From: an uncultured virus (IMG/VR IMGVR_UViG_3300025687_000036)
Lineage: Duplodnaviria; Heunggongvirae; Uroviricota; Caudoviricetes
Length of the DNA stretch: 20,000 nt
Virus record (IMG/VR): IMGVR_UViG_3300025687_000036
Direction: 5' to 3' (one strand)
The notes beneath the pieces were generated by a model. The model did not search any database and had not been told where the DNA came from. It saw only the letters and a list, made by a program, of their open reading frames with translations. Position 1 is the first letter of the stretch; every line of letters begins with the position of its first letter. The position numbers and the translations under genes are program-made. Below, one piece after another: positions 4,222 to 20,000 of the stretch.

Positions 4222-4580
4222 CGCACCGGCGGGCGAGGAAATCGCCACTGATTGTGGTCGACGTTTCCCTGCTCGAGCAGTGCTGGCAGTCGGAGATGAC
4301 CGGCGAGCAGATCGCCGGCGTCATCGGCGTGAAGAAGTGGCAGTTGCCGACGATCCGCGAGGAAGCCGGCCTGCCGAAGCGCCCCTCGTTCAAGTCCTAC
4401 CTGCGGCCGTGGGACTCGAAAAAGCGACCCAAGGAGCCGGACCCCGAGGTCTCGCCGGAGGAGGTGCAGCACCGGATCGCGAAGGTGCAGGCCAGATGGA
4501 CAGACGAGGTTTTTGTGTTGAGGTCTCTGGGCCGCGTGCGGCCTGTCCCGTATGAGTTTCCGAGGTATTCGATCCAGTGA
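4218..4580 (+). CDS. GcrA-like HTH protein, paralog 1
   Basis: GTGA start; LEQCWQSEMTGEQIAGVIG...GLPKR and C-terminal DP..SPEEVQHRIAKVQARW. Confidence 0.6.
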   Translation: MTHRRARKSPLIVVDVSLLEQCWQSEMTGEQIAGVIGVKKWQLPTIREEAGLPKRPSFKSYLRPWDSKKRPKEPDPEVSPEEVQHRIAKVQARWTDEVFVLRSLGRVRPVPYEFPRYSIQ

Positions 4581-4918
4581 CTGGTGTTCCGCTCGACGAG
4601 GATTTCTTGAGGTTTGCGTGGTCACGGTATCCGCTCTCCTACATCTGTGAGATGGCGAACTGCGGCCGGCGCAAGGTCTACTACTACGCCAGGAAGTTCG
4701 GTCTCGGCCCCAAGCCGGAAGGCACGTATCTGCCCCGCCGTGGCCGGAAGATGCCAGACCCGACCCCTGACCAAATACGTCAACGGTGCCTGGAGGTGCA
4801 GGCCCGGTGGTCCCCAGCGGAGCGCGAGCGGCGGGCCGGGCGGAGCAAACTGTCGGCTGCCGCCAAGGCGATGGGCTACGACGGCCGGAGCGTCCGATTC
4901 TCGGAGAGATTGCTGTAG
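4577..4918 (+). CDS. GcrA-like HTH protein, paralog 2
   Basis: GTGA start; LRFAW..I....ARKFGLGPK and PDPTPDQIRQRCLEVQARWSPAERERR. Confidence 0.6.
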   Translation: MTGVPLDEDFLRFAWSRYPLSYICEMANCGRRKVYYYARKFGLGPKPEGTYLPRRGRKMPDPTPDQIRQRCLEVQARWSPAERERRAGRSKLSAAAKAMGYDGRSVRFSERLL

Positions 4919-4951: not shown

Positions 4952-5245
4952 ATGCGACGCCAACCGCTCGAGCGGACGATCGTCGCCAAGGTCATGGCGC
5001 AGGCTCGGAGCCTCGGCTGGTGGGTTATGAAGACCCACGGCGGCTCCTATGGAACCGTTGTCGGCCTGCCTGACGTGCTGGCAATCAAGGACGGCCGGGC
5101 AGCGTGGATGGAAGTGAAGCGGCCGGGGTTTGAGCCGACCCGCGTGCAACTCCATCGTCAGCGCGAACTCAGCGGCTACGGATGCCCGGTGACGACCGTG
5201 ACCAGCGCCGCCGACGCTCGGCATTTTCTGGAGAGCATCGGGTGA
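4952..5245 (+). CDS. VRR-NUC domain nuclease (phage Holliday-junction resolvase type)
   Basis: LE..I ... GLPDVLAIKDGRAAWMEVKRPG..PT..Q. Confidence 0.9.
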   Translation: MRRQPLERTIVAKVMAQARSLGWWVMKTHGGSYGTVVGLPDVLAIKDGRAAWMEVKRPGFEPTRVQLHRQRELSGYGCPVTTVTSAADARHFLESIG

Positions 5246-6327
5246 GCAAAGACATCTCCTTCGGCGCTGCGGTCGTCGGCGACGCCGAGGTGGCGGCGGT
5301 GCGCCGCGTCTTGGAATCCGGCCGGCTGACCCGCGGGCCTGTGTGCGAGGAGATGGAGGCGGACCTCGCCAGGCTCACCGGCCTCGAGGCGCACGTCGTC
5401 TCCAGCGGCACCGCGGCGATGCATCTGGCCCTGCTGGCCGCCGGCGTGCAGCCCGGCGACCGCGTGATCGTGCCGGCCACGACCTACGTGGCGACCCTCA
5501 ACGCGGTGCTCTACTGCGGCGCCGAGCCGGTGCTGGTCGACGTCTGCCCGGCGACGTGGACGATCGACTTCGACGAGGCCGTTGAGGAGGCCGAGAGCCG
5601 GCAGGCCGCGGCGATCGTCCCCGTTCATCTCTACGGCGTTCCTGCCCCTTCGTTTCACGGGTGGCGGGAAGATTATTTCCGCCGCACCGGCCGGCTGGTG
5701 CGAATCGTCGAGGACGCCGCCGAGAGCCTCGGGTGCCTGCGATCAGGCCGGCACCCGTGCGGAGACCTGGCCGCGCTCTCGTTCTTCGGCTCCAAGACGA
5801 TCACGACAGGCGAAGGCGGCGCGGTGCTGTGGCGCGACCCCACGCTCGGTGCCCGCGTCCGGCATCTGGCTGGACAGGCGATGACGAAGCAGAGGTATCG
5901 CCACGACACCGTCGGCTTCAACTACCGGATGACGGAACTTCAGGCGGCCATCGGCGTCGAGCAACTCAAGAAGCTGCCGGCTCTCCTCGACGCCCGCCGC
6001 CATGTGTTCGCCTGGTACGACGAGTTTCTGCCTGCCGGGTGGCGACGACAGGACATCGACAGAAACGACACGCACGGCCTGTGGGCCTACGCAGCGACGA
6101 ACAACGAACTCGACGCCAGAAGGGTCATCCACGGCATGGCTCAGGCCGGCATCGAGTGTCGTCCGATCTTTCCGCCTCTGGGCCGGCACAACCACGCCGA
6201 GAGGTTTGCGGCGTACACGCCGCTGGCGGACTTTCTGCACGACCGCGGCATCGTTCTTCCCACGCACCCGCTCCTGACCAGAGACGACGTCAGTCGCGTG
6301 TGCGAAACCCTGGCGGAGTGGAAATGA
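5242..6327 (+). CDS. DegT/DnrJ/EryC1/StrS family PLP-dependent sugar aminotransferase (perosamine-synthase-like)
   Basis: SSGTAAMHLAL, VPATTYVAT, VHLYG, IVEDAAESLG, SFFGSKTITTGEGG (PLP lysine), GFNYRMTELQAAIG; GTGA start at 5242. Confidence 0.95.
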   Translation: MSKDISFGAAVVGDAEVAAVRRVLESGRLTRGPVCEEMEADLARLTGLEAHVVSSGTAAMHLALLAAGVQPGDRVIVPATTYVATLNAVLYCGAEPVLVDVCPATWTIDFDEAVEEAESRQAAAIVPVHLYGVPAPSFHGWREDYFRRTGRLVRIVEDAAESLGCLRSGRHPCGDLAALSFFGSKTITTGEGGAVLWRDPTLGARVRHLAGQAMTKQRYRHDTVGFNYRMTELQAAIGVEQLKKLPALLDARRHVFAWYDEFLPAGWRRQDIDRNDTHGLWAYAATNNELDARRVIHGMAQAGIECRPIFPPLGRHNHAERFAAYTPLADFLHDRGIVLPTHPLLTRDDVSRVCETLAEWK

Positions 6328-7097
6328 AGATCGTCGGCGTTTCCATGTTCATGGCCGACTGCGGCAAGCACTTGCAGCGCCGCCTCGAGCACCTCGTGTC
6401 CAAGCGCGGCGTGTCGGCGTGGGTGTGGATCGTCCGTCGAACCAACGATGTCACCGACCGGCTTCTGCACGCCTTCGTCGACTCCTCGCCGGTGCCGGCG
6501 ATGGTGATCGAGGAGTCGTGGCCGCAGCCGGCCGACAGGCTCATGGCGGTGTCGATGGCCGGTGACGTCGCCATGAACGCCGCGCTGATGCGAGGCGCCG
6601 AGAGGATTCTGTTCCACGAGAGTGATCTGATCTCGCCGGAGGACGTGGCCCTGCGGCTGGGCGAGGTTCTGGATTCCTCGCCGGCGGCGGCCGTCGCCGG
6701 CGGGTGGCCGTGCCTGGCGAGCGAGGGGATGGACGAGTCGCTGATGCTCTTCGACGGCGCCGCCCGCCTGGGCCGCGAGATGCAGATCGCCTTCGACGGC
6801 CAGCCAGCGGCACTGCCGTTCTTCTATGACTCGTGGGGGTATCGGCTCGACGGCCAGCGGTTCGCGTCTGTGCCTCCGTACTCGCCGTGCTATCGGCCCG
6901 ACGAGCCGTTTCGGCTGGATTCCGTCGGAAGCGTCGCGCTCATCGACGCGAGGTGGCTGCGATACGGCGCACGCATGGAACACGACGGGTTCGTGAGGCT
7001 CTGCGACCAGATACGCCAGATGGAAGGAGAAGTGTGGTGCGACCCGAGGATCATCATCAATCAGCCGCTCGAACTATGGACGTTCCAGAACAACTGA
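6324..7097 (+). CDS. Putative GT-A fold glycosyltransferase
   Basis: ATGA start MKIVGVS; ILFHESDL (DxD-like), FYDSWGYR, DSVGSVALIDA, VWCDP; resembles the downstream GT. Confidence 0.55.
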   Translation: MKIVGVSMFMADCGKHLQRRLEHLVSKRGVSAWVWIVRRTNDVTDRLLHAFVDSSPVPAMVIEESWPQPADRLMAVSMAGDVAMNAALMRGAERILFHESDLISPEDVALRLGEVLDSSPAAAVAGGWPCLASEGMDESLMLFDGAARLGREMQIAFDGQPAALPFFYDSWGYRLDGQRFASVPPYSPCYRPDEPFRLDSVGSVALIDARWLRYGARMEHDGFVRLCDQIRQMEGEVWCDPRIIINQPLELWTFQNN

Positions 7098-7957
7098 TCC
7101 GGCCAGAGGACTGGTGGCCTGTCGATCCGCACTGGCAGGAGCGGTACGACCGCATGGTCGGCATCGGCCGCCGGACGGCCGCTCAACTCGACGCCTGCGT
7201 CGTGATGATCTGCCGCAACTCGATGCCACACCTCGCCAACACGATTGGCCTGCTCCGCGAGTTGTCGCTCGGCTTCAGGTCGATGTCGATCTACGTCCAC
7301 GAGAACGACTCGACCGACGGCACCGGGGAGTTCCTCGACGTCGTGGCGGACGAGAGCTTCTCGATGACTGTCTGCCACGAGACCCTCGGCGGCATCGACG
7401 CCCGTGGGTTTGGTCGCGAGCGGACGGAGCGGCTGGCCTACTGTCGCAACAAGTGCCTGGGGTGGGTCTCGGAGAACGCCTCCCGCACCGCGTGGACGAT
7501 CGTGCTCGACTCCGACGCCCACGGCGGGTGGAGCGTCGACGGCGTCTTCAACAGCATCGGGTGCCTGGGCAGCCACAACACCCGGCCGGACTCCTTCCCT
7601 GCCGGCGGCATGGCCTCCTACGGCGTCTATAGACCTCGCCGGCTCGTACCCGAGGCCGCCGGCATCGGCGAGCACGGCATCCTTCAGTACGACGCCTGGG
7701 CCGCCCGGCTCAACGACTGGCGCGACCGCCGCGAGGAGGTTGGGTTCAACTGGTTTTTCTGTCTCCTACCGCCCGTCGGCTCGCCGCCGATTGAGTTCCT
7801 GTCGGCCTTCGGTGGCCTTGCGGTCTACCGTACCGATGCCTTCCTGGCCGGCGGCTACACCGGCGACGACTGCGAGCACGTCGGCCACCACAGAAACATG
7901 CGCGCCGCCGGCTACTCGATGCACTTGAACCCAGGATGCCGCTACGTCGCGTATTGA
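7076..7957 (+). CDS. GT-A glycosyltransferase resembling CAP59-type mannosyltransferases
   Basis: CRN, ENDSTDGT, RTERLAYCRN, IVLDSD (DxD), YDAWA, SAFGGLAVY, DCEHV, LNP. Confidence 0.75.
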   Translation: MDVPEQLIRPEDWWPVDPHWQERYDRMVGIGRRTAAQLDACVVMICRNSMPHLANTIGLLRELSLGFRSMSIYVHENDSTDGTGEFLDVVADESFSMTVCHETLGGIDARGFGRERTERLAYCRNKCLGWVSENASRTAWTIVLDSDAHGGWSVDGVFNSIGCLGSHNTRPDSFPAGGMASYGVYRPRRLVPEAAGIGEHGILQYDAWAARLNDWRDRREEVGFNWFFCLLPPVGSPPIEFLSAFGGLAVYRTDAFLAGGYTGDDCEHVGHHRNMRAAGYSMHLNPGCRYVAY

Positions 7958-9701: not shown

Positions 9702-10698
9702 ATTCAACCCGCTCCTCGAGTACGACCGCGGCTTGCGGGGGGCGACACTCGACCCTCGCGAGGACGAACTCCTCGTCGACTCGATCCTTCGGCATGGCGG
9801 AGACCCCGATGGCGACCACGTCGCGCATCACTGGGACTTCGCTGATTCGGCGAAAGGCAAACTGGTCCCACGCTGGGAGAACGTCATGCGGGAGTGGCCC
9901 GGCTGCTGGCCCGGTCCGCCGCAATCGAGAGGCGACTGCGTTTCACACGCCATCCTTCGGGCCGCGCTGTTGTCGTGGACTTGCGAGATTCAGGACGGCC
10001 GCCACGACGAAGTCACCGGCAAGATCGAGGGGAAGCCCGAGGTCTCCGACGTCGGCATCCGAAACAGCGTTCTCTCGAGCGAGGCGATCTACTGGCATCG
10101 CGGCCACAATGGCGATGGGTGGACGTGCAGTTCCGCAGCCCGCGCCATCACGACCGACGCCGGCATCTGGCTGAGACAGAACTACCCCGAGATCGGCATC
10201 GACCTGACGCGATACAACGGCACCATCGCCGGCCGCTGGGGTGCTCGGAAGCCGCCGGAGGAAGTGATCGCGATCGGCCGTGAGCACCTCGTCCGCACGG
10301 CGACGGTGGTCAAGAGCGTCGAGGCGATGCGCGACCTGCTCTACCAGGGCTACGGCGTCTTCTTCTGCTCAATGCTCAAGTGGTCGAGCACCCGCGATGA
10401 CAACGGCTACTCGCCGGTCGTCGTTGGATCGTGGGCTCATGCCCAAGGGATCGTCGGTTACGACGATCGCCCTGAGACGGTGAGCATCTACGGGGAGCCA
10501 CTGGCCTGCGTTCAGAACTCCTGGGGCCGATGGAACTCAGGCCCGCGAACCGTCCGCGGGACGAACTTCGAGATTCCAGAGGGCGCCTACTGGACGAAGG
10601 CGTCGACGATCCTGCGAGGGCAGGCGATTGCACTGTCGAGCGTGGCCGGCTGGCCGGCGAGGAAGCTGCCGAACTACGGTGCGGAGGGAAATGTATGA
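9694..10698 (+). CDS. Papain-like (C1 family) cysteine peptidase
   Basis: Q-x-x-G-D-C-V-S-H (oxyanion Q plus catalytic C), WAHAQGIVGYDD (catalytic H), VQNSWG (catalytic N). Confidence 0.85.
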   Translation: MSEFNPLLEYDRGLRGATLDPREDELLVDSILRHGGDPDGDHVAHHWDFADSAKGKLVPRWENVMREWPGCWPGPPQSRGDCVSHAILRAALLSWTCEIQDGRHDEVTGKIEGKPEVSDVGIRNSVLSSEAIYWHRGHNGDGWTCSSAARAITTDAGIWLRQNYPEIGIDLTRYNGTIAGRWGARKPPEEVIAIGREHLVRTATVVKSVEAMRDLLYQGYGVFFCSMLKWSSTRDDNGYSPVVVGSWAHAQGIVGYDDRPETVSIYGEPLACVQNSWGRWNSGPRTVRGTNFEIPEGAYWTKASTILRGQAIALSSVAGWPARKLPNYGAEGNV

Positions 10699-11066
10699 AG
10701 CCCGACGTCGTCGCTGACGCCACCGGCGTCATCCTGCTTGCCACCGTGGCCGCGCTGCCGATGTCGTGCGTCCCATCGCTGCCGGCGGCCCAGAGGGTGA
10801 ACCTTCAGCCGCTGGTTGCCACGGCCGGGGCATACAGCGTCATGGAAGGCGAGCGCTCGAGCCCGACGCCTGCTCCCGTTCCCACGGTCGGGTGCGAGGA
10901 AGGATGCGAATGCAACGGCAGCGGCAAGGAGCCCAGCGGCGACGGCCTGGCGATCGTCAATTGCCGCTGCCCAGAGACCTGCGCCTGCAAGGCGAACAAG
11001 GCGCCGCCGGCCCACACGTCTGCCGAGGGGACGCCGGGATGGCCGCCACGAAATTTAGTCCCCTGA
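10695..11066 (+). CDS. Exported or possible lipoprotein with a Cys-rich zinc-finger-like domain
   Basis: ATGA start; hydrophobic VILLATVAALPMSC; Pro-rich linker; CEEGCECNGSG..GDG..CRCPETCAC. Confidence 0.6.
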   Translation: MKPDVVADATGVILLATVAALPMSCVPSLPAAQRVNLQPLVATAGAYSVMEGERSSPTPAPVPTVGCEEGCECNGSGKEPSGDGLAIVNCRCPETCACKANKAPPAHTSAEGTPGWPPRNLVP

Positions 11067-11350
11067 AAGCCTGGGTGCTCCGGCGGGCGCCGATGCGCGT
11101 TTCGCTGCACGGGGCTCTTCGCGATCGGCTCGTCGAGCACATCGTCGAGGACTGGCCGGCCGGCTGCCCGCCAGACCGCATCGAGGAGGTCGTCCGCGCT
11201 CGCATGGCCGTCAGGCTCCGCGAGCAGTACGGAAGCGTCATTGCGGTGTTCATCCTGTCTGCCCTCGCGAACATCCTGATCCGCCTGGTCGTCGAGTGGT
11301 GGTTTGCCCACGAGGCCAACCGCGTCCTCATGGCCGAATGGTCTCGCTGA
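11039..11350 (+). CDS. Membrane protein with a C-terminal TM helix
   Basis: YGSVIAVFILSALANILIRLVVEWWF; coupled by TGATG to the HNH gene. Confidence 0.65.
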   Translation: MAATKFSPLKAWVLRRAPMRVSLHGALRDRLVEHIVEDWPAGCPPDRIEEVVRARMAVRLREQYGSVIAVFILSALANILIRLVVEWWFAHEANRVLMAEWSR

Positions 11351-11652
11351 TGCCTCGTCGCGTTCCCACCTACCGGCCACCTTGGATTCCCGCTCGTCAA
11401 GAGAACCGCCCCACGTCCTCCCAGAGGGGCTACGGGTCGGCAGCCTGGCAGCGTGTCCGTCTGGCCGTGATCGCCCGCGACGGCGGCGTCTGCCGCTCCT
11501 GCGGGCTCGTCATCCACAAGGCCGGCGACGCCCACGTCGATCACATCCTCGAGAAGCCGACCGACGAGGCCGCCGAGGCGACGCCGCTTTCCGGCCTCCA
11601 GCTTCTGTGCCGATCCTGTCACGCGAAGAAGACGAAGGCGTCATCCTCCTGA
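11350..11652 (+). CDS. HNH endonuclease, terminase-associated (HK97 gp74-like) type
   Basis: MP.R..., RGY..AW..R..V..RD..CRSC, HVDHI, LQLLCRSCHAKKT. Confidence 0.9.
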   Translation: MPRRVPTYRPPWIPARQENRPTSSQRGYGSAAWQRVRLAVIARDGGVCRSCGLVIHKAGDAHVDHILEKPTDEAAEATPLSGLQLLCRSCHAKKTKASSS

Positions 11653-11937
11653 CTTCCTGCGACTCCTCCTGGCCGCGTTGGCGGCCTTCTGGGTGCCGCC
11701 CTTGAAGCCGCAGGCCAGAGCAAGTTTGTGCCGCCGGTCGGTGCCAAATGGGTAGGTGCGCTCCTTGACCTGCTCGATCATCTTCCTGACGACGAGCCGC
11801 TTCCCAAAGATGACGGTCGTGACCTGGATGCCTTCGCCCTCGGCCGCTTCGATGGCCCGGTAGAGCGACCGCAGGGAGCAGCCGATCACGGCCTTCGCTT
11901 CCTCGAACGTCAGGTAGTCGTCTGTGTCGATCTTCAT
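11641..11937 (-). CDS. Excisionase/MerR-like HTH DNA-binding protein
   Basis: YLTFEEAKAVIGCSLRSLYRAI...FGKRLV; basic C-terminus. Confidence 0.75.
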   Translation of the reverse strand: MKIDTDDYLTFEEAKAVIGCSLRSLYRAIEAAEGEGIQVTTVIFGKRLVVRKMIEQVKERTYPFGTDRRHKLALACGFKGGTQKAANAARRSRRKSGG

Positions 11938-12236
11938 CGCCTCACCGCTCCTATGAATGCGTCCCCTAAGTCAACGAACGCCTCTCCAATCCTCCGCAGG
12001 GGCCGGTCGGCCTGCTGCTGCACGACAATTTGATGCACCGGGGCCGCCTGCGGCAACGGCTGCTGCCAGCCGTTTGCCACGGGCGGGGGCTGCCACGCCG
12101 GCTGCTGCCACCCGCCGGTTGCCACGGCCGGGGGTGCCGGCGCCGCCGCCGGCCGCTCCGCGAGCACCTCGCGGAGCAGCACGACGACGACGACGACCAG
12201 CACGGCCCGCCAGGTGTCACGCACGATGCCGATCAT
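11934..12236 (-). CDS. Membrane protein with Pro/Gln-rich repeats
   Basis: AVLVVVVVVLL TM; duplicated PPxVAxGWQQP; ATGA overlaps. Confidence 0.7.
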   Translation of the reverse strand: MIGIVRDTWRAVLVVVVVVLLREVLAERPAAAPAPPAVATGGWQQPAWQPPPVANGWQQPLPQAAPVHQIVVQQQADRPLRRIGEAFVDLGDAFIGAVRR

Positions 12237-12511
12237 GCCGCGATGCCCTCCCCCGCACGCAGCCTCTTGACGACCGCGCGGCAGTTGGCCGCGTACTCCG
12301 CGGCGTAGCCGTGGAGCGTCTCCTCGACGACCGCCACGGCCTCCTCGCGAGTCTCCACGACCCGCTCGCCCATGAACTCATAGAGCGGCTCGACGCGCCC
12401 CGACGCCAGGTGCCGGTAGAGCGTCTGCTCGCCGTGCTGCACCGGCTCGACCTCATCGACCACAACCAACGGCCTCCCGTCGCTTCCTCGGTATGCCTTC
12501 GCGATCCACAT
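12233..12511 (-). CDS. Hypothetical protein
   Basis: GAGGAGG RBS before ATG at 12511 (MWIAKAY...). Confidence 0.7.
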   Translation of the reverse strand: MWIAKAYRGSDGRPLVVVDEVEPVQHGEQTLYRHLASGRVEPLYEFMGERVVETREEAVAVVEETLHGYAAEYAANCRAVVKRLRAGEGIAA

Positions 12512-12578
12512 CTCGCACCTCCTCACTGGTTGCCACGCACCGGGGCCGCACCGTGCAGCCCGCGATGTCGCGGCGAGT

Positions 12579-12607
12579 AGCCTAGCGTTGTCTCTGCCTG
12601 CCGTCTA
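12579..12607 (-). promoter_or_regulatory. Possible sigma70-type promoter
   Basis: TAGACG-N17-TAGGCT, with the -35 overlapping the upstream stop; followed by a hairpin and the 16-bp motif leader. Confidence 0.3.
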
Positions 12608-12796
12608 ATCGTCGCCACGACGCTTCCGCCGTGAGCGTTTCTGCCGTCGTTTCTCCTGCCTCCTCCGCTCCATCTCCTCGATCGCCGCCGCCGCCACGCG
12701 ATGCATGGCCGCCTCGGCATCGCGACGCGAGGCCAGGCCGGATTCGACGAGGAACGAGAGCCATCCGGCTTCGTATGGGGTGACGCGGTTGGTCAT
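12605..12796 (-). CDS. Hypothetical protein with a basic C-terminus
   Basis: AAGGAGG RBS, ATGA overlap; MTNRVTPYEAGW... Confidence 0.65.
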   Translation of the reverse strand: MTNRVTPYEAGWLSFLVESGLASRRDAEAAMHRVAAAAIEEMERRRQEKRRQKRSRRKRRGDD

Positions 12797-13092
12797 TTCC
12801 TGCCTCCTTTCTGCGTCGGAAGCGAATCCAGCCACCGCGACATAATCGACTCGGTGCATTCGGACGGCAACCAGTGGGTAGCATCGCCCAGGCCGTACCC
12901 AGCGATTTTCTCCAGTTTTTCGATGGCGGAAAAGTAGGCGTCCGCGAAGGCCGGCGGGCAGTCTAGTCCGCTGTCTCGGTCGAGATGCCGCAGCCCGGTC
13001 TCCTGCATGGCGGCTTCTTCACGATCCGCCATAAAGGACACAACTGCATCCAGCAGTGCGGATGCTTCGTCTCTGGTCAGTTTGGTTTTCAT
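12793..13092 (-). CDS. Hypothetical protein, paralog of 13547-13819
   Basis: MKTKLTRDEA...ETGLRHLDRDSGLDCP..AYFSAI. Confidence 0.75.
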   Translation of the reverse strand: MKTKLTRDEASALLDAVVSFMADREEAAMQETGLRHLDRDSGLDCPPAFADAYFSAIEKLEKIAGYGLGDATHWLPSECTESIMSRWLDSLPTQKGGRK

Positions 13093-13511
13093 TTCTGCAC
13101 CTTTCGTTCCGCCGGACGGGCCGTCCCCTTGCACTCGATGACCTCGCACCCCTCGGCGATCGCCCGCTTCGTCCACGCCTCGGCCTGCCGGCGGGACCGG
13201 AACTCGATCACCTCGGCCAGGTCGGTGTTGCTACTGGCAGCCCACCGCATGAGTTCCTTGCCGGCGGGCGTGTTCGCGACCGACTCTATGGCCGCCGGCA
13301 GCCGCCAGAAGAGCACGATGCCCTCCTGCTTCAGCGGCTTGCAGTGGCAGTCCTGCTTCCGCAGTTTCTTCGCCTTCGCCACCGCGTCGCGGTAGCGGTG
13401 GAACCGCTCCACGTCATCGCTCGCCGGCCGGCGCCGGTCGAGCGGCTCCCAGTCGCCATCGTGCCGGCGGGCGTGTTTCACGCCGATGTCGGTGATAATC
13501 CAGTAGATCAT
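13089..13511 (-). CDS. Hypothetical protein
   Basis: GAGGAGAGG RBS before ATG 13511 (MIYWIITD...). Confidence 0.65.
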   Translation of the reverse strand: MIYWIITDIGVKHARRHDGDWEPLDRRRPASDDVERFHRYRDAVAKAKKLRKQDCHCKPLKQEGIVLFWRLPAAIESVANTPAGKELMRWAASSNTDLAEVIEFRSRRQAEAWTKRAIAEGCEVIECKGTARPAERKVQK

Positions 13512-13546
13512 CGTTCCTCTCCTCGTTTCGTGGTTGGTTCTTCTAA

Positions 13547-13819
13547 TCAATCAAGTCGTTCGATCGCATCGACCAGCTCCGAGGCATCGCATTTCTCCGG
13601 CTCCCAGTACTCGGCAGCCGACATATCGCATTCGGCGATTTCCTCGAGCCCGGCGATCGCCGAGAAGTACGCGGCAGCATGCGCTCGAGGGCAGTCCAGG
13701 TGGGTATCGCGGTCGAATTGCCGCAGCCCCGTCTCCCGCATCCCCTGCTCGTCCCGGTCTGTGCCGAATGAGTTGATCGCGCACAGCAGTGCGTACGCCT
13801 GCTCCTTGCTCAGTGTCAT
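13547..13819 (-). CDS. Hypothetical protein, paralog of 12793-13092
   Basis: MTLSKEQA...ETGLRQFDRDTHLDCP..AYFSAI; GAGGAGAGG RBS. Confidence 0.75.
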   Translation of the reverse strand: MTLSKEQAYALLCAINSFGTDRDEQGMRETGLRQFDRDTHLDCPRAHAAAYFSAIAGLEEIAECDMSAAEYWEPEKCDASELVDAIERLD

Positions 13820-13888
13820 CGTCCTCTCCTCGTTTCGCCGCACGGGGCGGCAGGGTTGAATCGGTCCACTGGTTGACACGGGGCGGGG

Positions 13889-14284
13889 TCAGTCACGCCA
13901 ATGCTCAAGCGCATCGTCCTCGGTCTCGAACGGGCCGCCAGCATCCACGCCGCGGACGTACACGTACCATCCGGTGCCCTCGACTGCCCTCTGCTCACAA
14001 CGAGCGACAACCGGCGGCTCGGCCCGCCCCTCGTCGGCATCGATCGTCCAGCCGCCAGCGCGGGCCTCGTCCTCGGGGATCATCACCTCGTCGTCCACGT
14101 TGAGGTATCCGGCCTCGTCACCAACGATTCGACCAGTGAGTCGGCCGTGTCGGTCGATCTCAGGCCAGCAACCGTCCCACGTACAGCCGTCCTGAAAAAT
14201 CTCGTTCCACTCCCGACTCTTGTAGTGCAGGCCGGCTCCGGCCTCGCACCGCCGCTCGTCGGTCATCTCGCTGAATGGTCGCAT
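13889..14284 (-). CDS. Acidic hypothetical protein
   Basis: GAGGAG RBS in the repeat leader; MRPFSEM...GPFETEDDAL. Confidence 0.7.
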   Translation of the reverse strand: MRPFSEMTDERRCEAGAGLHYKSREWNEIFQDGCTWDGCWPEIDRHGRLTGRIVGDEAGYLNVDDEVMIPEDEARAGGWTIDADEGRAEPPVVARCEQRAVEGTGWYVYVRGVDAGGPFETEDDALEHWRD

Positions 14285-14289
14285 CGTCG

Positions 14290-14655
14290 TCTCCTCATGT
14301 TTCGCCGGACGGTGCCGGCTGGTTTCCTCGGTCGGGGGCCACCGCGGCCCGCCCCTCGCCGGCGCCCGAGGGCGGCGCCGGAACCAGGGCGGGTCGTCAC
14401 GCCGCGGCATCCGCCTCCGCAAACTCCATCGCCTCGCGTCGGGTCGAAAACTCCCGCGACCAGACCGCGATGCCGCCCTTGACCAACGCCGCCACCCAGC
14501 GTCGGCCGTTCGCCCGCCTCACCGACCAATGGCCGACCGGAGCATCGAGCAGCATCGCACCGGCACCGTGGCCGGCATCTTCGCTTTTCACCCATCGCCG
14601 TGTCGTCGTGTCCATCTTCGCTCTCCTCATGTTTCGCCGGACGGTGCCGGCTGGT
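14290..14655. repeat. Identical 34-bp direct repeat pair (14290-14323, 14622-14655) forming two gene leaders
   Basis: tctcctcatgtttcgccggacggtgccggctggt read at both positions. Confidence 0.9.
14397..14615 (-). CDS. Hypothetical protein
   Basis: RBS in the repeat leader; MDTTTRRW...FSTRREAMEFAE. Confidence 0.7.
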   Translation of the reverse strand: MDTTTRRWVKSEDAGHGAGAMLLDAPVGHWSVRRANGRRWVAALVKGGIAVWSREFSTRREAMEFAEADAAA

Positions 14656-14686
14656 GTCGGTCGATCCACTGGCTGCCACGCTCCGG

Positions 14687-15040
14687 TCACGCGACCGGGT
14701 CGATGATCCCATGCCTCACCATCCAGAGACGCAGGCCGGCACGGTGCCTCTGAACCGCCGTCGTGTCGAGCTGCCACTGGTCATCCTCGCGGCGGCAGCA
14801 GTCGTGCGCAGCCTGCCAGAGGCCGTACTGCTCGGCCCACTCTTGGTCGCAGCCGACAGGGTCGCCCTCGCCGCCGGCCACTCGCTCGACGGTTGCCTCG
14901 GCCACTCCATCGCAGATCGCCGCCGCCGCCTGGCGGTAGACGACGGCAAAGTCGTCAGCCTCGTCAGCCGACAAGCCAGCCGCCACCAAGTCGAGCTCCG
15001 CGTTCAGCAGGATCGTCACGTCTGGAAGTATCGTCGTCAT
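14687..15040 (-). CDS. Hypothetical protein
   Basis: GAGGAG RBS; MTTILPD... Confidence 0.7.
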   Translation of the reverse strand: MTTILPDVTILLNAELDLVAAGLSADEADDFAVVYRQAAAAICDGVAEATVERVAGGEGDPVGCDQEWAEQYGLWQAAHDCCRREDDQWQLDTTAVQRHRAGLRLWMVRHGIIDPVA

Positions 15041-15145
15041 CGCATCTCTCCTCGCTTCTGGGGTTTCCACGCTCCGGGGCCGCGCCGGCCCGCCCGTCGC
15101 CCCCGGAGCCGGCGTCTCGCCGGGCGGGGGTTGCGGGCGGGTCGC

Positions 15146-15382
15146 TCACTTGCCGCTCCACACTGGCTTCGTTCCTGTCAGGCTTGCGATCTCTTGCGCG
15201 AGTTCCTTCGTGAACGTCCAGTAAACCGGATGGTGGATCACATTCGACCCCTTCCGGCACTTGTCGCCGGTCGAGATGTTGACGGCGCAGCCGTCTTCCA
15301 GAAAACGAACAGGAGCGCCCTCGCCCATCGGAACCATGCGGCTCTTGATCGACTCAATTTGCTCTTGTGTCAGGATCGTCAT
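15146..15382 (-). CDS. Hypothetical protein
   Basis: GAGGAG RBS; leader shares 20 identical bp with the 15040 leader. Confidence 0.7.
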   Translation of the reverse strand: MTILTQEQIESIKSRMVPMGEGAPVRFLEDGCAVNISTGDKCRKGSNVIHHPVYWTFTKELAQEIASLTGTKPVWSGK

Positions 15383-15466
15383 CGCATCTCTCCTCTCGTT
15401 CCCCCATCCGGGGGTCTGGTGAAATCATCCTCTAGTCGAGCCGCCGCGGCAACGAGCCGGGGCGGG

Positions 15467-15826
15467 TCAGGCACACTCAGCACACAGCCGCTCTGGGCTG
15501 CAAATGACCGGAAAAAACCAACTCAGCCCCAGCCGCCCGCACTGGTCGCATCGGTACAGCTTGCCGTCAGGCAGGCACCCGCGGGCATCCTCGATCGCCT
15601 GCCGCAGCCCCTCGCGGGCCTGCTCGTCCTCCAGGCTGCCGGCGAGCCGCTCGGCCACGTCGATCGCCAGGGCCGGCATCTTCCGCCTGCCGCGGTAGGT
15701 GTCGACCTCGACCCAGACCAGCGGCACGTCGTGGCCGGCGGCCCGCCAGGCCCGCACCTCCTCGGCATCGGCCATGACGGCGCCCGCCTCGGCCATTTCG
15801 ATCATCGCGTTTGAAACGTATCCCAT
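15467..15826 (-). CDS. Hypothetical protein with a C-terminal zinc-finger-like motif
   Basis: GGAGG RBS; CDQC...C....CAEC. Confidence 0.7.
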   Translation of the reverse strand: MGYVSNAMIEMAEAGAVMADAEEVRAWRAAGHDVPLVWVEVDTYRGRRKMPALAIDVAERLAGSLEDEQAREGLRQAIEDARGCLPDGKLYRCDQCGRLGLSWFFPVICSPERLCAECA

Positions 15827-15899
15827 CGCCGCGTTCCTCCACTCGGGGTCATCGTTTCCACGATCGGGCCACGCGGCCCGATCTCTCCTTCTGTCGCAT

Positions 15900-15927
15900 A
15901 TCCTAGCATCGGCATAGTGTCTGTCAA
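15900..15927 (-). promoter_or_regulatory. Strong sigma70-type promoter
   Basis: TTGACA-N16-TAGGAT with an extended TGn; the -35 overlaps the TGA stop of the upstream gene. Confidence 0.7.
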
Positions 15928-16220
15928 CCTGAAATCCTTCTGGTCACCCGATACGGTCTCGCCACCAAGCCAGGCACCGGCGACCGCCGCCGGCCCTCGA
16001 CGTGCAGGAGCGCCCAACCCTCGGCACCGTGTGCGAGGAGATAGACGCGGCTGCGCCGCCGGATGACCTCGGCGAGCCGGAACGTGCCCCGGGCGGCCAG
16101 TGGGATGCGCCGGCCGTCGTGGCATCGGTAGTACGGGCCGGCGGAGACCTTGAACCTGTCGCCCGGCACCAGGACGACACGGGGACTGATTCGGTAGCCG
16201 GTTTCGCTGGCCGGGGTCAT
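15924..16220 (-). CDS. Basic hypothetical protein
   Basis: AAGGAGGT RBS, ATGA overlap; MTPASETGY... Confidence 0.7.
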   Translation of the reverse strand: MTPASETGYRISPRVVLVPGDRFKVSAGPYYRCHDGRRIPLAARGTFRLAEVIRRRSRVYLLAHGAEGWALLHVEGRRRSPVPGLVARPYRVTRRISG

Positions 16221-16450
16221 GTGGCACCTCCTTCGATGACGCGAACGTCTGACACGGTCGCGTTGTGCTCGATGTTCCGCCGGGCTCGTTGGACCGCCTC
16301 GGCCTCTGCCTCGGCCAGCACCTGCTCTTCGGTGGCCGCCGGATCGACCAGCATCCAGAACCGCCCGGTGCCGCTCGTCCATGCGTGGAGGTGGCCGCCA
16401 GCGGCGTCATATTCCACGCGGACGCGCTTGTAATGCGTCATCGCGGTCAT
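16217..16450 (-). CDS. Hypothetical protein
   Basis: AAGGAGGT RBS; ATGA overlaps at both ends. Confidence 0.7.
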   Translation of the reverse strand: MTAMTHYKRVRVEYDAAGGHLHAWTSGTGRFWMLVDPAATEEQVLAEAEAEAVQRARRNIEHNATVSDVRVIEGGAT

Positions 16451-16887
16451 GCGGCACCTCCTTCCGCCTGCTCGCCGATGCCGCGGAGGAAATCGGCCGC
16501 CCGGTCGATCGCGTCGTGGAACGCATCCGCGGCCTTCTGGAACTCGGCCTGCGTGCCGTGCTCGTTCTGGTCAAAGAATGCCTCCTGCTTCTCCACGATC
16601 TGCCGCAGATGGTTGAGCATCGCGGCGTGCCGCGACTCGTCGCACGAAGCGCCGGCGGCCGGCACCTCCTCGCGATCCTCGTATCGGTAGTCGTCGCCTT
16701 CGCAGACCCCCTGCACCTCGCTCTCGCCGGGCTCGTCGTAGGATCGCTGGTTGTCATAGTCGGGGTCATCCATCGCGAGGCGGGCCGCCTCCTCGATGCT
16801 CGACGCCTCGACGGTCGTGTCGCAGTAGTAGGTCACCGGCCACTCGATGCGGACGGTGTATGTTCGTGTCGTCGTCTTCGTTGCCAT
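16447..16887 (-). CDS. Acidic hypothetical protein
   Basis: GAGGAG RBS; TYTV.I......TVEASSIEEAARLA motif common in small phage early proteins. Confidence 0.7.
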   Translation of the reverse strand: MATKTTTRTYTVRIEWPVTYYCDTTVEASSIEEAARLAMDDPDYDNQRSYDEPGESEVQGVCEGDDYRYEDREEVPAAGASCDESRHAAMLNHLRQIVEKQEAFFDQNEHGTQAEFQKAADAFHDAIDRAADFLRGIGEQAEGGAA

Positions 16888-16995
16888 GGTCGGGGTTCTC
16901 CTCTCGTCTCGTGTTTCCACGTTCTGGGCAGGCTCGTCGCCGGCATCCCCTTCGCCGCCGGCCACGGGCGCCGGCGGGGCCAGGGGCGGCCGAAG

Positions 16996-17310
16996 TCAGC
17001 GGCTGGCCTTCTTCGTCGTCTTCTTCGCCTTCGCCTTCTCCCGAGGCGTGGCGCAGTGGAACTCTCCGGCGTGAGCGAAGATCGCCACCCCCTCCTCCTG
17101 ATCCTCCTCCTCCTCGTCGTCCCGGGCCACGGCGAAGACCGTGTCGGTGCCGATCTCGGAGTAGCCCTCCGGCACCTCCTCGATGAAGACATCGAGGAGT
17201 TTGCGGCGCGCCAGCGCGTTCAGCACCTCGGCGCAGTCGCTCATGGTCAACTCGGCCTCGTCTCCGTTGGCGAGCGAGCATCGGATCGTTGTCCGGGTCA
17301 TCGCGTTCAT
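16996..17310 (-). CDS. Hypothetical protein with an acidic patch and Lys-rich tail
   Basis: GGAGG RBS; DDEEEEDQEE then KAKAKKTTKK. Confidence 0.7.
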   Translation of the reverse strand: MNAMTRTTIRCSLANGDEAELTMSDCAEVLNALARRKLLDVFIEEVPEGYSEIGTDTVFAVARDDEEEEDQEEGVAIFAHAGEFHCATPREKAKAKKTTKKASR

Positions 17311-17416
17311 CTTCTGGTTCCTCCAGTCGGGGTATAGGTTTCCATCCACGGGGCCACGGTGGCCGCCGACTCGACGCCTCCCCGCGGGCGGGAGGCGCCG
17401 GCTCGGGGGTCAGTCG

Positions 17417-17935
17417 TCAGAACACCTCCAGCGAGTCGAGGTCGCAGTCGGCCAGCACTCGCTCCATCTGCCGCCACTGCCGGCAGGTTTCCCGCCAGCC
17501 AGCCTGCAACTGACGGTGCTCGGCCACCGTCATCTCATCCGGCTCGCACGACCCGTATGTGTCGATGTAGTCGGCGAGCGTTCCGGGGTCGCACTTCGGC
17601 AGGCAGCACAGGACGTCGGTGATGCACGGGGGGATGCCGTTGCCCGAATCGACAATTGATTGGCCGAATCGGATGGTGAACGACCGCCGACCGTGACGCA
17701 CGGTCACCCTCCATATGTCTCGGTCGTCTTTGTCGCAGTCGAACATCCTGCCGTGACTGTCGAATCGAGCGGTCATCGACACGCCGTTCGTCGCCATCCA
17801 CTCGCGAGCCATTTCCGCCAGGTCGTCGCCCTCGGTCATCGAATCTGCCAGCGGCAGCGCGATCGCTCGCCCGTGTACGGTGGCGTCGTGATACTCGCGG
17901 CTGAACGGTTCAAGCGTTTCGTGCGTCGTGTTCAT
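17417..17935 (-). CDS. Conserved phage hypothetical protein
   Basis: W.VT......F...FGQS....P...DVLCCL.K.DPG...DY...YG pattern seen in phage early regions. Confidence 0.7.
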   Translation of the reverse strand: MNTTHETLEPFSREYHDATVHGRAIALPLADSMTEGDDLAEMAREWMATNGVSMTARFDSHGRMFDCDKDDRDIWRVTVRHGRRSFTIRFGQSIVDSGNGIPPCITDVLCCLPKCDPGTLADYIDTYGSCEPDEMTVAEHRQLQAGWRETCRQWRQMERVLADCDLDSLEVF

Positions 17936-18013
17936 CTCTCGTTTCCTCACTCGGGGTCTGCTCGTTCCGCCGGCCGGGGCACCGTGCCTCGGCCGGTTGT
18001 GTCGGCGTGTAGG

Positions 18014-18277
18014 TCAGTCGATCGGCCAACCCTGCCGCCAGTAGCAGGGCACGGTGGCCTCGTCGTCGCTGTCGTCGTCGTCGCCCAGGCGCACCTCGGC
18101 CACGAATTCCTCGTCGCCGCGGCCGCCCTCGTCGCATCGGTAGAGTGATCCGCCGTCCCCCTCGTCGGCCCCCTCGTCGGCGAGCAGCTCTCGCACGTAG
18201 TCGCGGGCGGCCGCGTCGGAAACGGCGTCGAACCGCTCATCGCCACCGCGGTCGAACCTGATCAGGTAGTTGGGCAT
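18014..18277 (-). CDS. Highly acidic small protein (DNA-mimic candidate)
   Basis: 87 aa, about 26 D/E versus 9 R and 0 K by hand count; GGAGG RBS. Confidence 0.7.
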   Translation of the reverse strand: MPNYLIRFDRGGDERFDAVSDAAARDYVRELLADEGADEGDGGSLYRCDEGGRGDEEFVAEVRLGDDDDSDDEATVPCYWRQGWPID

Positions 18278-18356
18278 CGTCTGGTTCCTCCGGTCGGGGT
18301 TCTCGTTCCGCCGGCCGGGGGCAACGTGCCGCCGGCCGGCTGTGTCGGCGTGTAGG

Positions 18357-18569
18357 TCAGACGCGCCGCGCTCCAATCGCCGCCTCGATCTCGGAGACGA
18401 TGCGGCCGAATTCCTCGCGGCGCCGGGCATCCTCGGCTCGCCGGCGCTCCAGCGCCGCCGCCGCGCTGGCGGCGTCGCGCCGCTGGCGCCGGGCCTCCCC
18501 GAAGAACGTGAAGTCTGCGAGAATCAGCGCGGCCACGAAGACCGCCGCGTTGGCTACCAGGATCGTCAT
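18357..18569 (-). CDS. Small membrane-anchored coiled-coil protein
   Basis: MTILVANAAVFVAALILADF TM followed by a charged helix. Confidence 0.7.
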   Translation of the reverse strand: MTILVANAAVFVAALILADFTFFGEARRQRRDAASAAAALERRRAEDARRREEFGRIVSEIEAAIGARRV

Positions 18570-18645
18570 GTCTCGTCTCCTCGGTCGGGGTTCTCGTTCC
18601 GCCGGCCGGGGCACCGTGCCCCGGCCGGTTGTGTCGGCTTGTAGG

Positions 18646-19290
18646 TCAGGAGAGCACCGCGGCCCGTGCCACGCTGTCGCCGGCCATCGCCGCCGTGATC
18701 ATCTCCGCAGACGGGATCGGGGCGTGTCCCATCACCTCGCGATACTGGGCACGGTTCGCCGCATGCTCCTCGGCCACCGCGAGCCACGCGCCACGACGCA
18801 GGTGACGGGGGAAACCGCGGAGCCGCCCACCCTTGCCGATCACCGCGTAGACGGCACGGCAGGCGACGGTCCACGGCTGCGCGGCGTGAACGCCGGCCAC
18901 GACGCGCCGGACCATCTCGGCGTTGTGGCCGACGAGGCGCTCCACGGGGAGATCGGCACGAACACGCTCCACCATGCCGGGCACCGGGGCCGGCGCCGTC
19001 AGCTTCGGCGTGTGGTCCGGCGTCGAGCGGTACGTGCCGGGCGGATTCTTCGCCTCACGACGGCGTCGAGCCTCCCATGCACGCCGGCGCTCGGCCGCCG
19101 CCTCCGGGGTGCCGGGCAGCGGTCGCAGGCGGGCCGCGGTGGCTCGCACCTCCCGCCCCGTGTCGCCGGTGCGGCACAGATACCGCGCCACGCCACGGCC
19201 TTCCAGGCGGCGCAGGACGGTCACCGGCGCCAGCCGGTTGCCGATCCGCACCCGATACTCGCCGCCGATCTTCACCTCAGACTGTCGCAT
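18646..19290 (-). CDS. Basic hypothetical protein with an SH3-like N-terminal module
   Basis: MRQSEVKIGGEY.V......V.V......Y.....TGR.VR..A.RLR resembles N-termini I recall from planctomycete prophage proteins. Confidence 0.7.
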   Translation of the reverse strand: MRQSEVKIGGEYRVRIGNRLAPVTVLRRLEGRGVARYLCRTGDTGREVRATAARLRPLPGTPEAAAERRRAWEARRRREAKNPPGTYRSTPDHTPKLTAPAPVPGMVERVRADLPVERLVGHNAEMVRRVVAGVHAAQPWTVACRAVYAVIGKGGRLRGFPRHLRRGAWLAVAEEHAANRAQYREVMGHAPIPSAEMITAAMAGDSVARAAVLS

Positions 19291-19555
19291 CGTCTCGTCT
19301 CCTCGGTCGGGGTCATCGTTTCCACGAACCGGCGACGCGCCGGTGCGTTGTGTCGGGCATCCGTCTAGCAGTCGCGGGTCGGGGTTTCGTCGGACGGGGT
19401 TCGCCCCCGCGACGCAGTAATATCGGCCAAAAGTTTGTCAGGAGTCAAGTGGGGCGACATTTTGTGGTCAAGGCGACTAGCGGACACAATATGTTGATTG
19501 GACAGTTGGGATTGCCGCGTTTCGTCGGTCGGGGGTCGCGTTTCCATGGACGGGT

Positions 19556-19780
19556 CTAGTTGAATTCCTCGGTCGTGTCACCGACGCGAACGTCTTCCAC
19601 GGCCGCTGTCACGACGAGGTTGAACGTCGGCCCTTCGGGGCCGATGGTCATCGTGATGCGTCCAGTGTCCATGTCGGCGTCGAAGCCGATACCGATTGGC
19701 TTCCCGCTCCACGATCGTTCAAGCCGTTTCAGGCCGACGGCTAGCCGTCGAGTCATCGCCTCGCGTTGCTGTGGCGTCAT
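19556..19780 (-). CDS. Hypothetical protein
   Basis: ATG directly downstream of the motif array; MTPQQREAM... Confidence 0.6.
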   Translation of the reverse strand: MTPQQREAMTRRLAVGLKRLERSWSGKPIGIGFDADMDTGRITMTIGPEGPTFNLVVTAAVEDVRVGDTTEEFN

Positions 19781-19786
19781 CGTCTG

Positions 19787-19869
19787 GTTTCCACGGTCGG
19801 GCTATTCGGGTTTCCACGGCCGGGGTGCCCGTTTCCACGGCCGGGGTTCGCTGGTTTCTACGGTCGGGG
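19787..19869. repeat. Four phased 15-16 bp direct repeats (iteron/operator-like)
   Basis: gtttcYacggYcggg(g) at 19787, 19810, 19831, 19854; spacings 23/21/23. Confidence 0.9.
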
Positions 19870-19874
19870 ATGCT

Positions 19875-20000
19875 ATCGGACGGTCGTCCCCTCGTCACCT
19901 CCGGCGCCAGCGGCTGCCAGGGTGATCGAGCGGGCGAGGTGATCGGACGGTCGTCCCCTCGTCACCTCCGGCGCCAGCGGCTGCCAGGGTGATCGAGCGG
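19875..20000. repeat. Perfect 67-bp tandem repeat running off the window end
   Basis: Unit 19875-19941; the second copy from 19942 is identical over the 59 visible bases. Confidence 0.95.

Follow-up and report, generated by a model that had tools for sequence, protein, structure and literature searches.

A polar 16-bp repeat with an odd-spacing rule in the early arm of an uncultured lake phage: a possible stoperator-like system and its candidate winged-helix reader

Polar repeats are common in early regions of phages, mostly without a known reader. As far as the cited accounts describe them, the closest systems are the operators and stoperators of cluster A mycobacteriophages, read by L5 gp71 and the TipsytheTRex repressor (PMC9283540); phage D29 Gp36, an Xis-like repressor that acts on direct repeats rich in GC, some of them within a gene (PMC12266134); BldC, which reads an AT tract and a C-G pair through one arginine (PMC12266134, PMC5859096); the start-associated sequences (SAS/ESAS) of cluster K, which nearly always carry AGGAG and precede a start by 3-7 bp (PMC3203893); and SPBRE, the repeated element of SPbeta, with MrpR, a recombinase-fold protein lacking the catalytic Arg and His (PMC10516654). 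Here we describe an array of about 35 same-orientation 16-bp sites in the uncultured virus IMGVR_UViG_3300025687_000036. The window, i.e. the whole stretch of DNA analysed, is the final 20 kb of its 49,893-bp contig (64% GC), and the array, located by matrix and pattern scans, occupies positions 10815-19869 of the minus strand. By analogy, it would behave like cluster A stoperators, as a variant with a candidate reader and an unexplained parity of spacing. In the literature, mostly that outside subscription journals, we came across neither this motif nor an odd-spacing rule.

The consensus of the site is CCCCG-NN-CG-NN-GAAAC, with a fixed spacer and about 20 bits of information (525 distinct contexts). 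An earlier, sequence-only reading of the window had listed about 30 same-orientation copies. All but one of them hold (29 of 30 score 13.1-22.3 bits leave-one-out); the copy at 13872 is degenerate (0.9 bits), and five good copies (10815, 10878, 11099, 12118 and 16201) and three weaker ones (12073, 15114 and 16750) had been missed. What the sequences show directly is the word itself, its one-way orientation and restriction to the arm, where the copies stand, how they are spaced and how they vary together with the type of winged-helix gene. The fixed pattern matches the window 21 times, always on the minus strand, while 0.13 matches are expected from 200 shuffles. A family matrix, built from 20 relatives with the window excluded but started from the window's own matrix, detects no plus-strand site of at least 13 bits in the 49.9-kb contig and 32 such sites on the minus strand, all of them at window positions 10815-19854. 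Over 29 non-redundant loci including the window phage, each oriented by its majority strand, 730 sites lie on one strand and two on the other. Left out of these counts were L004 (same contig as L003), L010, L020, L031 and L033 (near-duplicate site layouts) and ten loci with at most two sites; 25 of 35 candidate loci have at least eight same-strand copies each. Five whole relatives contain 23-37 copies each within one arm of 7-14 kb, with 0-2 stray matches elsewhere. Among 37 records selected by their recombinase, 26 have no strict 16-bp match and seven have one, most of them being fragments that end before the arm or that were not further examined.

Where arm starts are assembled in relatives, a cos-like site comes first and is followed by a sigma70-like promoter, a few genes without the motif, a tandem array and a cluster of 2-8 sites; then begins the arm proper, whose gene junctions have one or two sites each. 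Most related arms begin with such clusters. The tandem arrays are near-perfect, GC-rich and made of phage-specific, unrelated sequences, mostly in 32-76-bp units set directly against the first cluster; they were found at the starts of L002, L005, L006, L008, L009, L017, L022, L023, L025, L149 and L151, and most assemblies break there. L035:7181-9618 is an exception, having sites on both sides of the tandem repeat and terminal cluster. Some genomes carry a second tandem array near the cos-like end. The motif-free block that separates the cos-like site from the tandem array (L043:9300-11270, L048:5880-7300, L053:830-1780, L149:130-1430) has lower GC, 1-5 genes and its own promoter; we take it to resemble a first-entry segment, by analogy with T5.

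Sites are strongly concentrated between genes, as the sequence-only reading had suggested by placing copies in most early-gene leaders. In 21 loci with crude gene calls, 447 sites are intergenic (32.0 kb), 97 lie within open reading frames (ORFs; 105.7 kb) and 19 span an ATG, the density being about 15 times higher between genes than inside the crudely called ORFs. None of 44 promoter-like sites is overlapped by a motif copy, and 26 of them have a copy 15-45 nt after the -10 hexamer. A second conserved word, of the form C(C/T)AANTGTCC and frequently preceded by TTCTCAC, lies upstream of early sigma70-like promoters, including that at the cos-like end. In 18 of 23 loci, same-orientation copies are found in or past the HNH gene that converges with the arm, compared with 1 of 70 control windows; their positions are lineage-specific and fall over changing amino acids, still in the early orientation.

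The protein that reads the motif is probably encoded by the last gene of the arm, at 11641-11937 of the minus strand, a 98-aa Xis/MerR-like winged-helix protein that the earlier reading had named among its candidates as a helix-turn-helix (HTH) protein. All 24 loci with 16-bp sites that reach the HNH gene encode a single-domain winged-helix protein at the arm end, and in four loci a winged-helix paralogue stands directly behind the terminal cluster. Four recombinase-selected relatives (G161, G163, G165 and G169) have a site one base longer, CCCG-NN-CG-NN-G-M-AAA(C), and a two-domain winged-helix gene occupies the same slot in all five distinct 17-bp arrays, i.e. in these four and in L210/L212, found by DNA pattern alone without a protein criterion. 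The 17-bp pattern scan returned 26 stretches, five of them in arrays (G161, G163 twice, L210 and L212) and the rest chance matches. In 17-bp phages, sites also lie inside or directly before the two-domain gene itself; in L154:5139, L153:6130, L210 and L162 a 17-bp site is placed, once or twice (25 bp apart), within the sequence coding for the inter-domain linker (peptide DPSVAK). G161 clusters with the window phage in trees of the helicase, of the recombinase and of a 190-aa tandem-HTH protein, yet it has the 17-bp motif and retains decayed 16-bp leaders. Evidently, the motif follows an arm gene and not the core. The notion of a phage-wide cis code read by one factor thus gains support from the family-wide motif and from this co-variation.

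Several other candidates do not follow the motif. The 190-aa protein, conserved, with two HTH repeats and encoded beside the helicase and divergently from the tyrosine recombinase (L068:5525-6097, plus strand), does not track motif type, nor do the phylogenies of helicase and recombinase track its change. The GcrA-like paralogues (4254-4580 and 4577-4918), which the sequence-only reading had also considered, are equally conserved in one phage of each type (47-49% in a 17-bp phage, 27-50% in a 16-bp phage). A catalytically dead recombinase similar to MrpR was ruled out as well: the conserved 285-aa tyrosine recombinase (L068:4238-5095, minus strand), which is devoid of an arm-binding domain, keeps its catalytic residues (R146, K171, H234, R237, H257 and Y266 invariant in six of six). 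The likeness to SPBRE and MrpR, as far as these are described in the cited account, is that of a repeated element in a phage encoding a tyrosine-recombinase-fold protein, but here that protein keeps R, K, H, R, H and Y. A 63-aa helical protein (12605-12796, minus strand), encoded also in two 17-bp arms, is a possible partner of the reader; by eye, we take it to resemble MshEN or S4 N-terminal helices.

The model of the 98-aa protein comprises a winged helix and a 30-residue C-terminal helix (pLDDT 89). It has the MerR-like winged-helix fold, its nearest matches being domains of partition proteins, Xis and RacA (Z 8.4-5.5): ParA2 N-terminal winged HTH (wHTH) domain (Z 8.4, rmsd 2.0, 57 aligned residues), pSK1 Par (Z 6.6, rmsd 2.3, 53 aligned) and Pukovnik Xis (Z 5.7, rmsd 2.2, 50 aligned), with BldC further down (Z 4.5, rmsd 2.7, 49 aligned). 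HTH_17 was detected in 37 of 79 members of the winged-helix family. Foldseek gave no match at E of 0.001 or below, an atlas search returned unnamed clusters and HTH_17 only, and the cluster A repressor is not among the 50 structural matches listed for the protein. Two copies modelled together score 0.49 (best control 0.00), contacts agreeing between runs by 100% with pLDDT of at least 73; in a benchmark, 20 of 30 solved pairs attained this mark, as did 1 of 23 monomers. The two-copy model supports a symmetric dimer, which would fit the fused two-domain form. With Gp36 and BldC, in so far as the cited accounts characterize them, the family shares the fold class, and next to the single arginine of BldC with its AT tract and C-G pair it can set an invariant R27 and a site composed of CG plus an A tract. 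It differs in having about 35 long 20-bit sites instead of two short-repeat loci, no 9-bp head-to-tail repeat, a long C-terminal helix and a symmetric modelled dimer. Bearing on a head-to-tail polymer on 9-10-bp direct repeats, a trait of BldC/Xis-type proteins, are the weak 10-11-bp component of the spacing (0.25) and the symmetric two-copy model.

Spacing between neighbouring sites obeys an unexpected rule. Start-to-start distances up to 70 bp are odd in 243 and even in 47 distinct spacers (29 loci), with peaks at 15 (25 spacers), 21 (45), 23 (47) and 25 (24) and troughs at 22 (5) and 24 (15); 26 occurs ten times, and among longer distances 29 (6), 31 (9), 39 (10), 49 (13) and 51 (14) are represented. 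Odd spacers are in the majority in 28 of 29 loci, the remaining one being a tie, and the pattern by which loci were found permitted odd and even spacings alike. Recombinase-selected loci give 29 odd and 8 even. The seven 21-bp and four 23-bp pairs of the window, described in the sequence-only reading, are confirmed, and so is the excess of these distances in the histogram. The helical phasing and the binding on one helical face by which they had been explained are not: 22 is avoided between the favoured 21 and 23, so that parity cannot stem from B-DNA twist, and among distances of at least 27 bp a period of 2 scores 0.74 (null 95% level 0.23), as against 0.25 for a period of 10.5 (null 95% level 0.16). 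A weak component of about 10-12 bp persists beside period 2.

Several trivial sources of parity were tried and rejected. Hairpin symmetry does not account for it, since hairpin-free long linkers are odd in 60 and even in 9 cases and linkers with hairpins are odd in 41 of 47, although the loops are odd in just 24 of 47. Shared ancestry does not either, as 69 of 84 linker families are majority-odd; p-values are overstated because relatives are not independent, and this family count is the fairer figure (under loose 60% clustering nearly all linkers fuse into one family, which leaves the ancestry test powerless). Nor is parity a general property of leaders: it is absent from site-to-ATG (103:101) and stop-to-site (100:89) distances, and cruder word controls lean to even (next GATG 201 even to 139 odd, previous TGAC 166:131). 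The bias extends to 71-150 bp (35 odd, 12 even) and is not significant beyond 150 bp. The run of C before a site varies freely in length and the rest of the linker compensates for it (170 of 206, Fisher p 1.5e-21). When the site gains one base, the minimal tandem period becomes 17 instead of 15, and 16 of 17 distinct spacers of the 17-bp type are odd. It follows from the parity that bound neighbours communicate with each other in a 2-bp register, at distances reaching about 150 bp.

The reading that we favour, though we would put its chances slightly below even, is that the product of the operon's own last gene closes down the early operon in a polar, stoperator-like manner. The 16-bp word would be the DNA-binding site of the phage's own Xis/MerR-like winged-helix protein, and the arm would be transcribed by host RNA polymerase from the sigma70-like promoters. 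Being the product of the last gene, the reader would accumulate after a delay and then fill the oriented sites, which follow closely on the promoters, mark almost all gene junctions and continue past the operon end. Bound sites would block elongation in one direction, closing the early phase and keeping early transcripts out of the convergent late genes, in effect a negative-feedback timer. Binding, repression and timing are here what we infer.

In the parts of its description cited above, cluster A shares with this array more than 20 asymmetric sites per genome, oriented with transcription and mostly placed in short intergenic spaces, as well as an HTH reader of phage origin, a candidate here, with two DNA-binding domains per chain in the 17-bp variant. 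There are differences too. Sites are of 16 or 17 bp here and 13 bp there, and are confined to one terminal arm instead of being spread genome-wide; no promoter-like site is overlapped, unlike in the operator role of cluster A sites; copies are paired with odd spacing, and the word is nearly invariant across the family. The candidate reader is a 98-aa Xis/MerR-like protein at the end of the arm that it would regulate; gp71, by its description, is a monomer of HTH and Stoperator domains. There is no evidence of lysogeny here.

Several facts speak against polar shut-off by the winged-helix protein. RNA polymerase advances one base at a time, and a roadblock to it gives no cause for odd spacing, so that the spacing rule is left without explanation by this model. 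Classical operators overlap promoters, which these sites do not. An asymmetric site faces a symmetric modelled dimer; single-domain readers are only about 25% identical and differ in their recognition helices, yet they go with the same 16-bp word. The switch to 17 bp may represent just two independent events, judging from sequence comparison, and G175 has the two-domain protein with no array in the 4 kb of arm covered. Finally, reader and sites are linked on one arm, hence co-inheritance is expected for any arm-borne reader, and the gene of the 63-aa protein, itself a conceivable reader, is nearly as widespread, being present in 23 of 24 complete 16-bp arms.

Parity finds a ready cause if the sites serve as one-directional barriers to, or as loading points of, a machine moving in 2-base steps, such as a ring helicase, DNA translocase, packaging motor or TnsC-like filament, a reading that we consider unlikely. 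DnaB, FtsK and terminases move in 2-base steps. Odd spacing would give neighbours opposite registers and so ensure that one of them is encountered in phase every time; alternatively, a filament would start from a footprint of 15 bp (or 17 bp) and lengthen by 2 bp at a time, and the winged-helix protein may remain the site-binding part. In TnsC, as described in the cited preprint, each subunit touches a pair of neighbouring phosphates on a single strand, and polymerisation proceeds in one direction (10.1101/2021.05.25.445634). Such a machine agrees with parity persisting with and without hairpins and fading past 150 bp, with compensation between C-run and linker, with the shift of the tandem period, and with the array adjoining a cos-like end and perfect tandem expansions. 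In its most developed form, which we likewise regard as doubtful, the cos-end arm would be a polar nucleoprotein track in 2-bp register: the phage winged-helix protein would mark the oriented sites, and a filament or ring motor, gaining two bases with each subunit, would bridge or scan the stretches of up to about 150 bp that separate them, for DNA entry, packaging termination or fork passage and not for simple repression. Selection would keep neighbours odd-spaced because of this partner, in a 'rule of two' for a double-stranded DNA phage. Against it stand the lack of any motor or AAA+ filament gene tied to the motif (the helicase phylogeny does not track it), the weaker parity of terminal clusters (60:24) than of leader pairs (157:15), and the strong link to promoters and leaders, which is read more simply as transcription control.

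The fold raises another explanation, quite improbable in our view, that the arm is a centromere-like or compaction domain whose protein coat anchors or segregates an extrachromosomal prophage, similarly to RacA or pSK1 Par, with the recombinase resolving dimers. The top matches are indeed wHTH domains of partition proteins and RacA (Z to RacA and pSK1 Par 5.5-6.6), and the 30-residue C-terminal helix, the dense terminal cluster and the intact recombinase would fit; so would a scan of GTDB with the site-pair pattern, which found arrays solely on short phage-like contigs. But Z values of 5.5-8.4 indicate a shared fold and not a function, and neither the strict orientation with transcription nor the placement at promoters and leaders is required of a centromere. 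RacA sites, moreover, are inverted repeats in the cited account (PMC12266134), and the sites here are not.

All copies lie on the early-transcribed strand, and this would also be expected if the motif acted in early RNA, in translation control, processing or antitermination, for example through the CsrA-like protein that the phage family encodes (L068:13650-13832, corresponding to G000 28649-28831, plus strand; Pfam E 1e-17; matched also in G001 and G002). An ATG follows 1-9 nt behind the site in 144 of 654 distinct contexts, and GGA occupies positions 11-13 in 69% of these; GC hairpins stand beside many sites, and the AAAC end of the motif is mostly unpaired in RNA folding. We nevertheless hold an RNA signal to be very improbable. 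Among the remaining 510 contexts the share with GGA falls to 43%, and these retain 20.0 bits, so complementarity to the Shine-Dalgarno (SD) sequence does not explain the motif. CsrA targets are defined by an invariant GGA, which neither figure shows. An internal hairpin was ruled out, there being no covariation or compensatory pairing. Copies upstream of promoters and antisense inside late genes, over changing amino acids, argue against the translation signal that the sequence-only reading had entertained. The genes of the motif-free first block have ordinary leaders, and the co-varying protein has a DNA-binding fold. That reading had also held the gene-proximal copy usually to contain the SD; that copy has an SD-like GGAG or GAGG in 6 of the window's 11 close pairs, and unpaired copies have a separate SD downstream. 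The parallel with cluster K therefore goes only part of the way, as far as SAS are described in the cited account: both are asymmetric, of one orientation, restricted to the non-structural arm, placed before unrelated genes and able to contain an SD, but most copies here are not adjacent to a start and mostly lack AGGAG, clusters stand away from leaders, and companion copies run in the same direction where those of SAS are inverted.

A host protein with few chromosomal sites could also read the motif, 16-bp and 17-bp types then reflecting different hosts. This is highly improbable, even though the word is nearly invariant while the phage winged-helix proteins are not and a factor with fewer than five sites would be invisible in our scan. 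In a sample of 151 genomes of the likely host order, no motif excess over the reversed-pattern control was apparent by inspection, except in a bin containing phage contigs, which points to a phage-encoded reader; the 15 chromosomal matches inspected lie in unrelated contexts, mostly within long frames, and the two-domain gene accompanies every 17-bp array found. That the copies are crossover points or by-products of cassette shuffling through leader duplication, perhaps with the tyrosine recombinase, is hardly credible: orthologous leaders do precede unrelated genes in relatives, and joints of population contigs lie near leaders (e.g. 13854-15075, 15124-15389, 15465-19288), but copies arise at differing places within coding sequence and antisense, linker families are majority-odd and the motif change is not mirrored in the recombinase. 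Genes do change places at shared leaders in population contigs, and we take this for an outcome of the sharing.

In the window, the arm can be followed on the minus strand from the contig end inwards. The contig breaks within a perfect GC-rich tandem repeat of a 67-bp unit (19875-20000), which abuts a terminal cluster of four sites (19854, 19831, 19810 and 19787; spacings 23, 21 and 23; 19787-19869) upstream of the first arm gene. Then come a 21-bp pair (19519-19555) about 70 bp upstream of a putative sigma70-like promoter (TTGACT-18-GATATT, 19419-19448, by consensus match only), the second conserved word CCAACTGTCC upstream of this promoter (19500-19509; present in 23 of 29 loci) and a single site just downstream of it (19384-19399). 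Pairs spaced by 21 bp follow at 19297-19333, the proximal copy including the SD of gene 18646-19290, and, each behind a GC hairpin, in the leaders of 18357-18569 (18575-18611) and 18014-18277 (18284-18320). The leader of 17417-17935 has a 23-bp pair (17941-17979), that of 16996-17310 a 21-bp pair (17317-17353), and a 33-bp pair (16880-16928) has its proximal copy across the ATG of 16447-16887, as previously noticed for the copy at 16880. One site falls within codons 2-7 of gene 15924-16220 (16201-16216). A second putative promoter (TTGACA-16-TAGGAT, 15900-15927, again by consensus match only) is followed, 30 nt past its -10 hexamer, by a 21-bp pair (15833-15869).

Further sites between 12529 and 15413 are single or separated by hairpins: 15398, 15114/15063 (51 bp), 14631, 14322/14299 (23 bp), 13832, 13106 and 12529. 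Another (12118-12133) lies within gene 11934-12236, upstream of the winged-helix gene, with the weaker copy at 12073 45 bp off. The plus-strand HNH endonuclease gene (11338-11652) converges with the arm and marks its end. Beyond it, within 10815-11114, lie three minus-strand sites at 11099, 10878 and 10815, the latter two 63 bp apart and antisense in plus-strand gene 10695-11066; the sequence-only reading had seen no good copy in the plus-strand arm, but its distal end holds these three.

We read the window phage as a cos-type siphophage, one of a family of uncultured lake phages. Complete genomes of relatives (64-75 kb), with roles assigned from translations and terminase comparison, show the order terminase, portal, capsid, tail, replication genes, HNH and then the opposite-strand arm of small genes. 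In G004, G005, G166 and G167 the arm starts close to the terminase end, behind a CCCCC..GGGG stretch which we take to be the cos site from the HK97-like layout. Sequencing runs in which at least half of the window is present carry freshwater or aquatic labels, and none of those listed is an RNA run. A planctomycete is the probable host: of five array-bearing GTDB contigs, three are binned in Pirellulales/Planctomycetaceae genomes and one in a Cephaloticoccus genome. No integrated copy of the phage was seen, GenBank phages gave no DNA-level match to window positions 14000-20000, and the terminase of one relative has best matches of 39-40% only. Pfam and PHROGs searches named almost no arm gene, and an Rfam scan gave no score near the gathering threshold. 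Sugar-nucleotide and glycosylation genes (by translation GDP-mannose dehydratase-like, epimerase-like, DegT aminotransferase and glycosyltransferase-like) and two DNA methylase-like genes occur at G000 15948-17838 and at window positions 5242-6327 and 6833-7957. Six-bp palindromes (CTGCAG, AGGCCT, CACGTG, GGATCC and others) are strongly avoided across arms and cores of relatives.

The natural switch between 16-bp sites with one domain and 17-bp sites with two names the 98-aa protein as candidate reader and makes the question testable. If parity reflects a partner stepping by 2 bp, it would betray the register of a motor or filament in the sequence itself, and the same sign could be searched for in other genomes. 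For this widespread group of probable Planctomycete phages, for which we found no such account in the literature, the array adds a proposed account of gene control.

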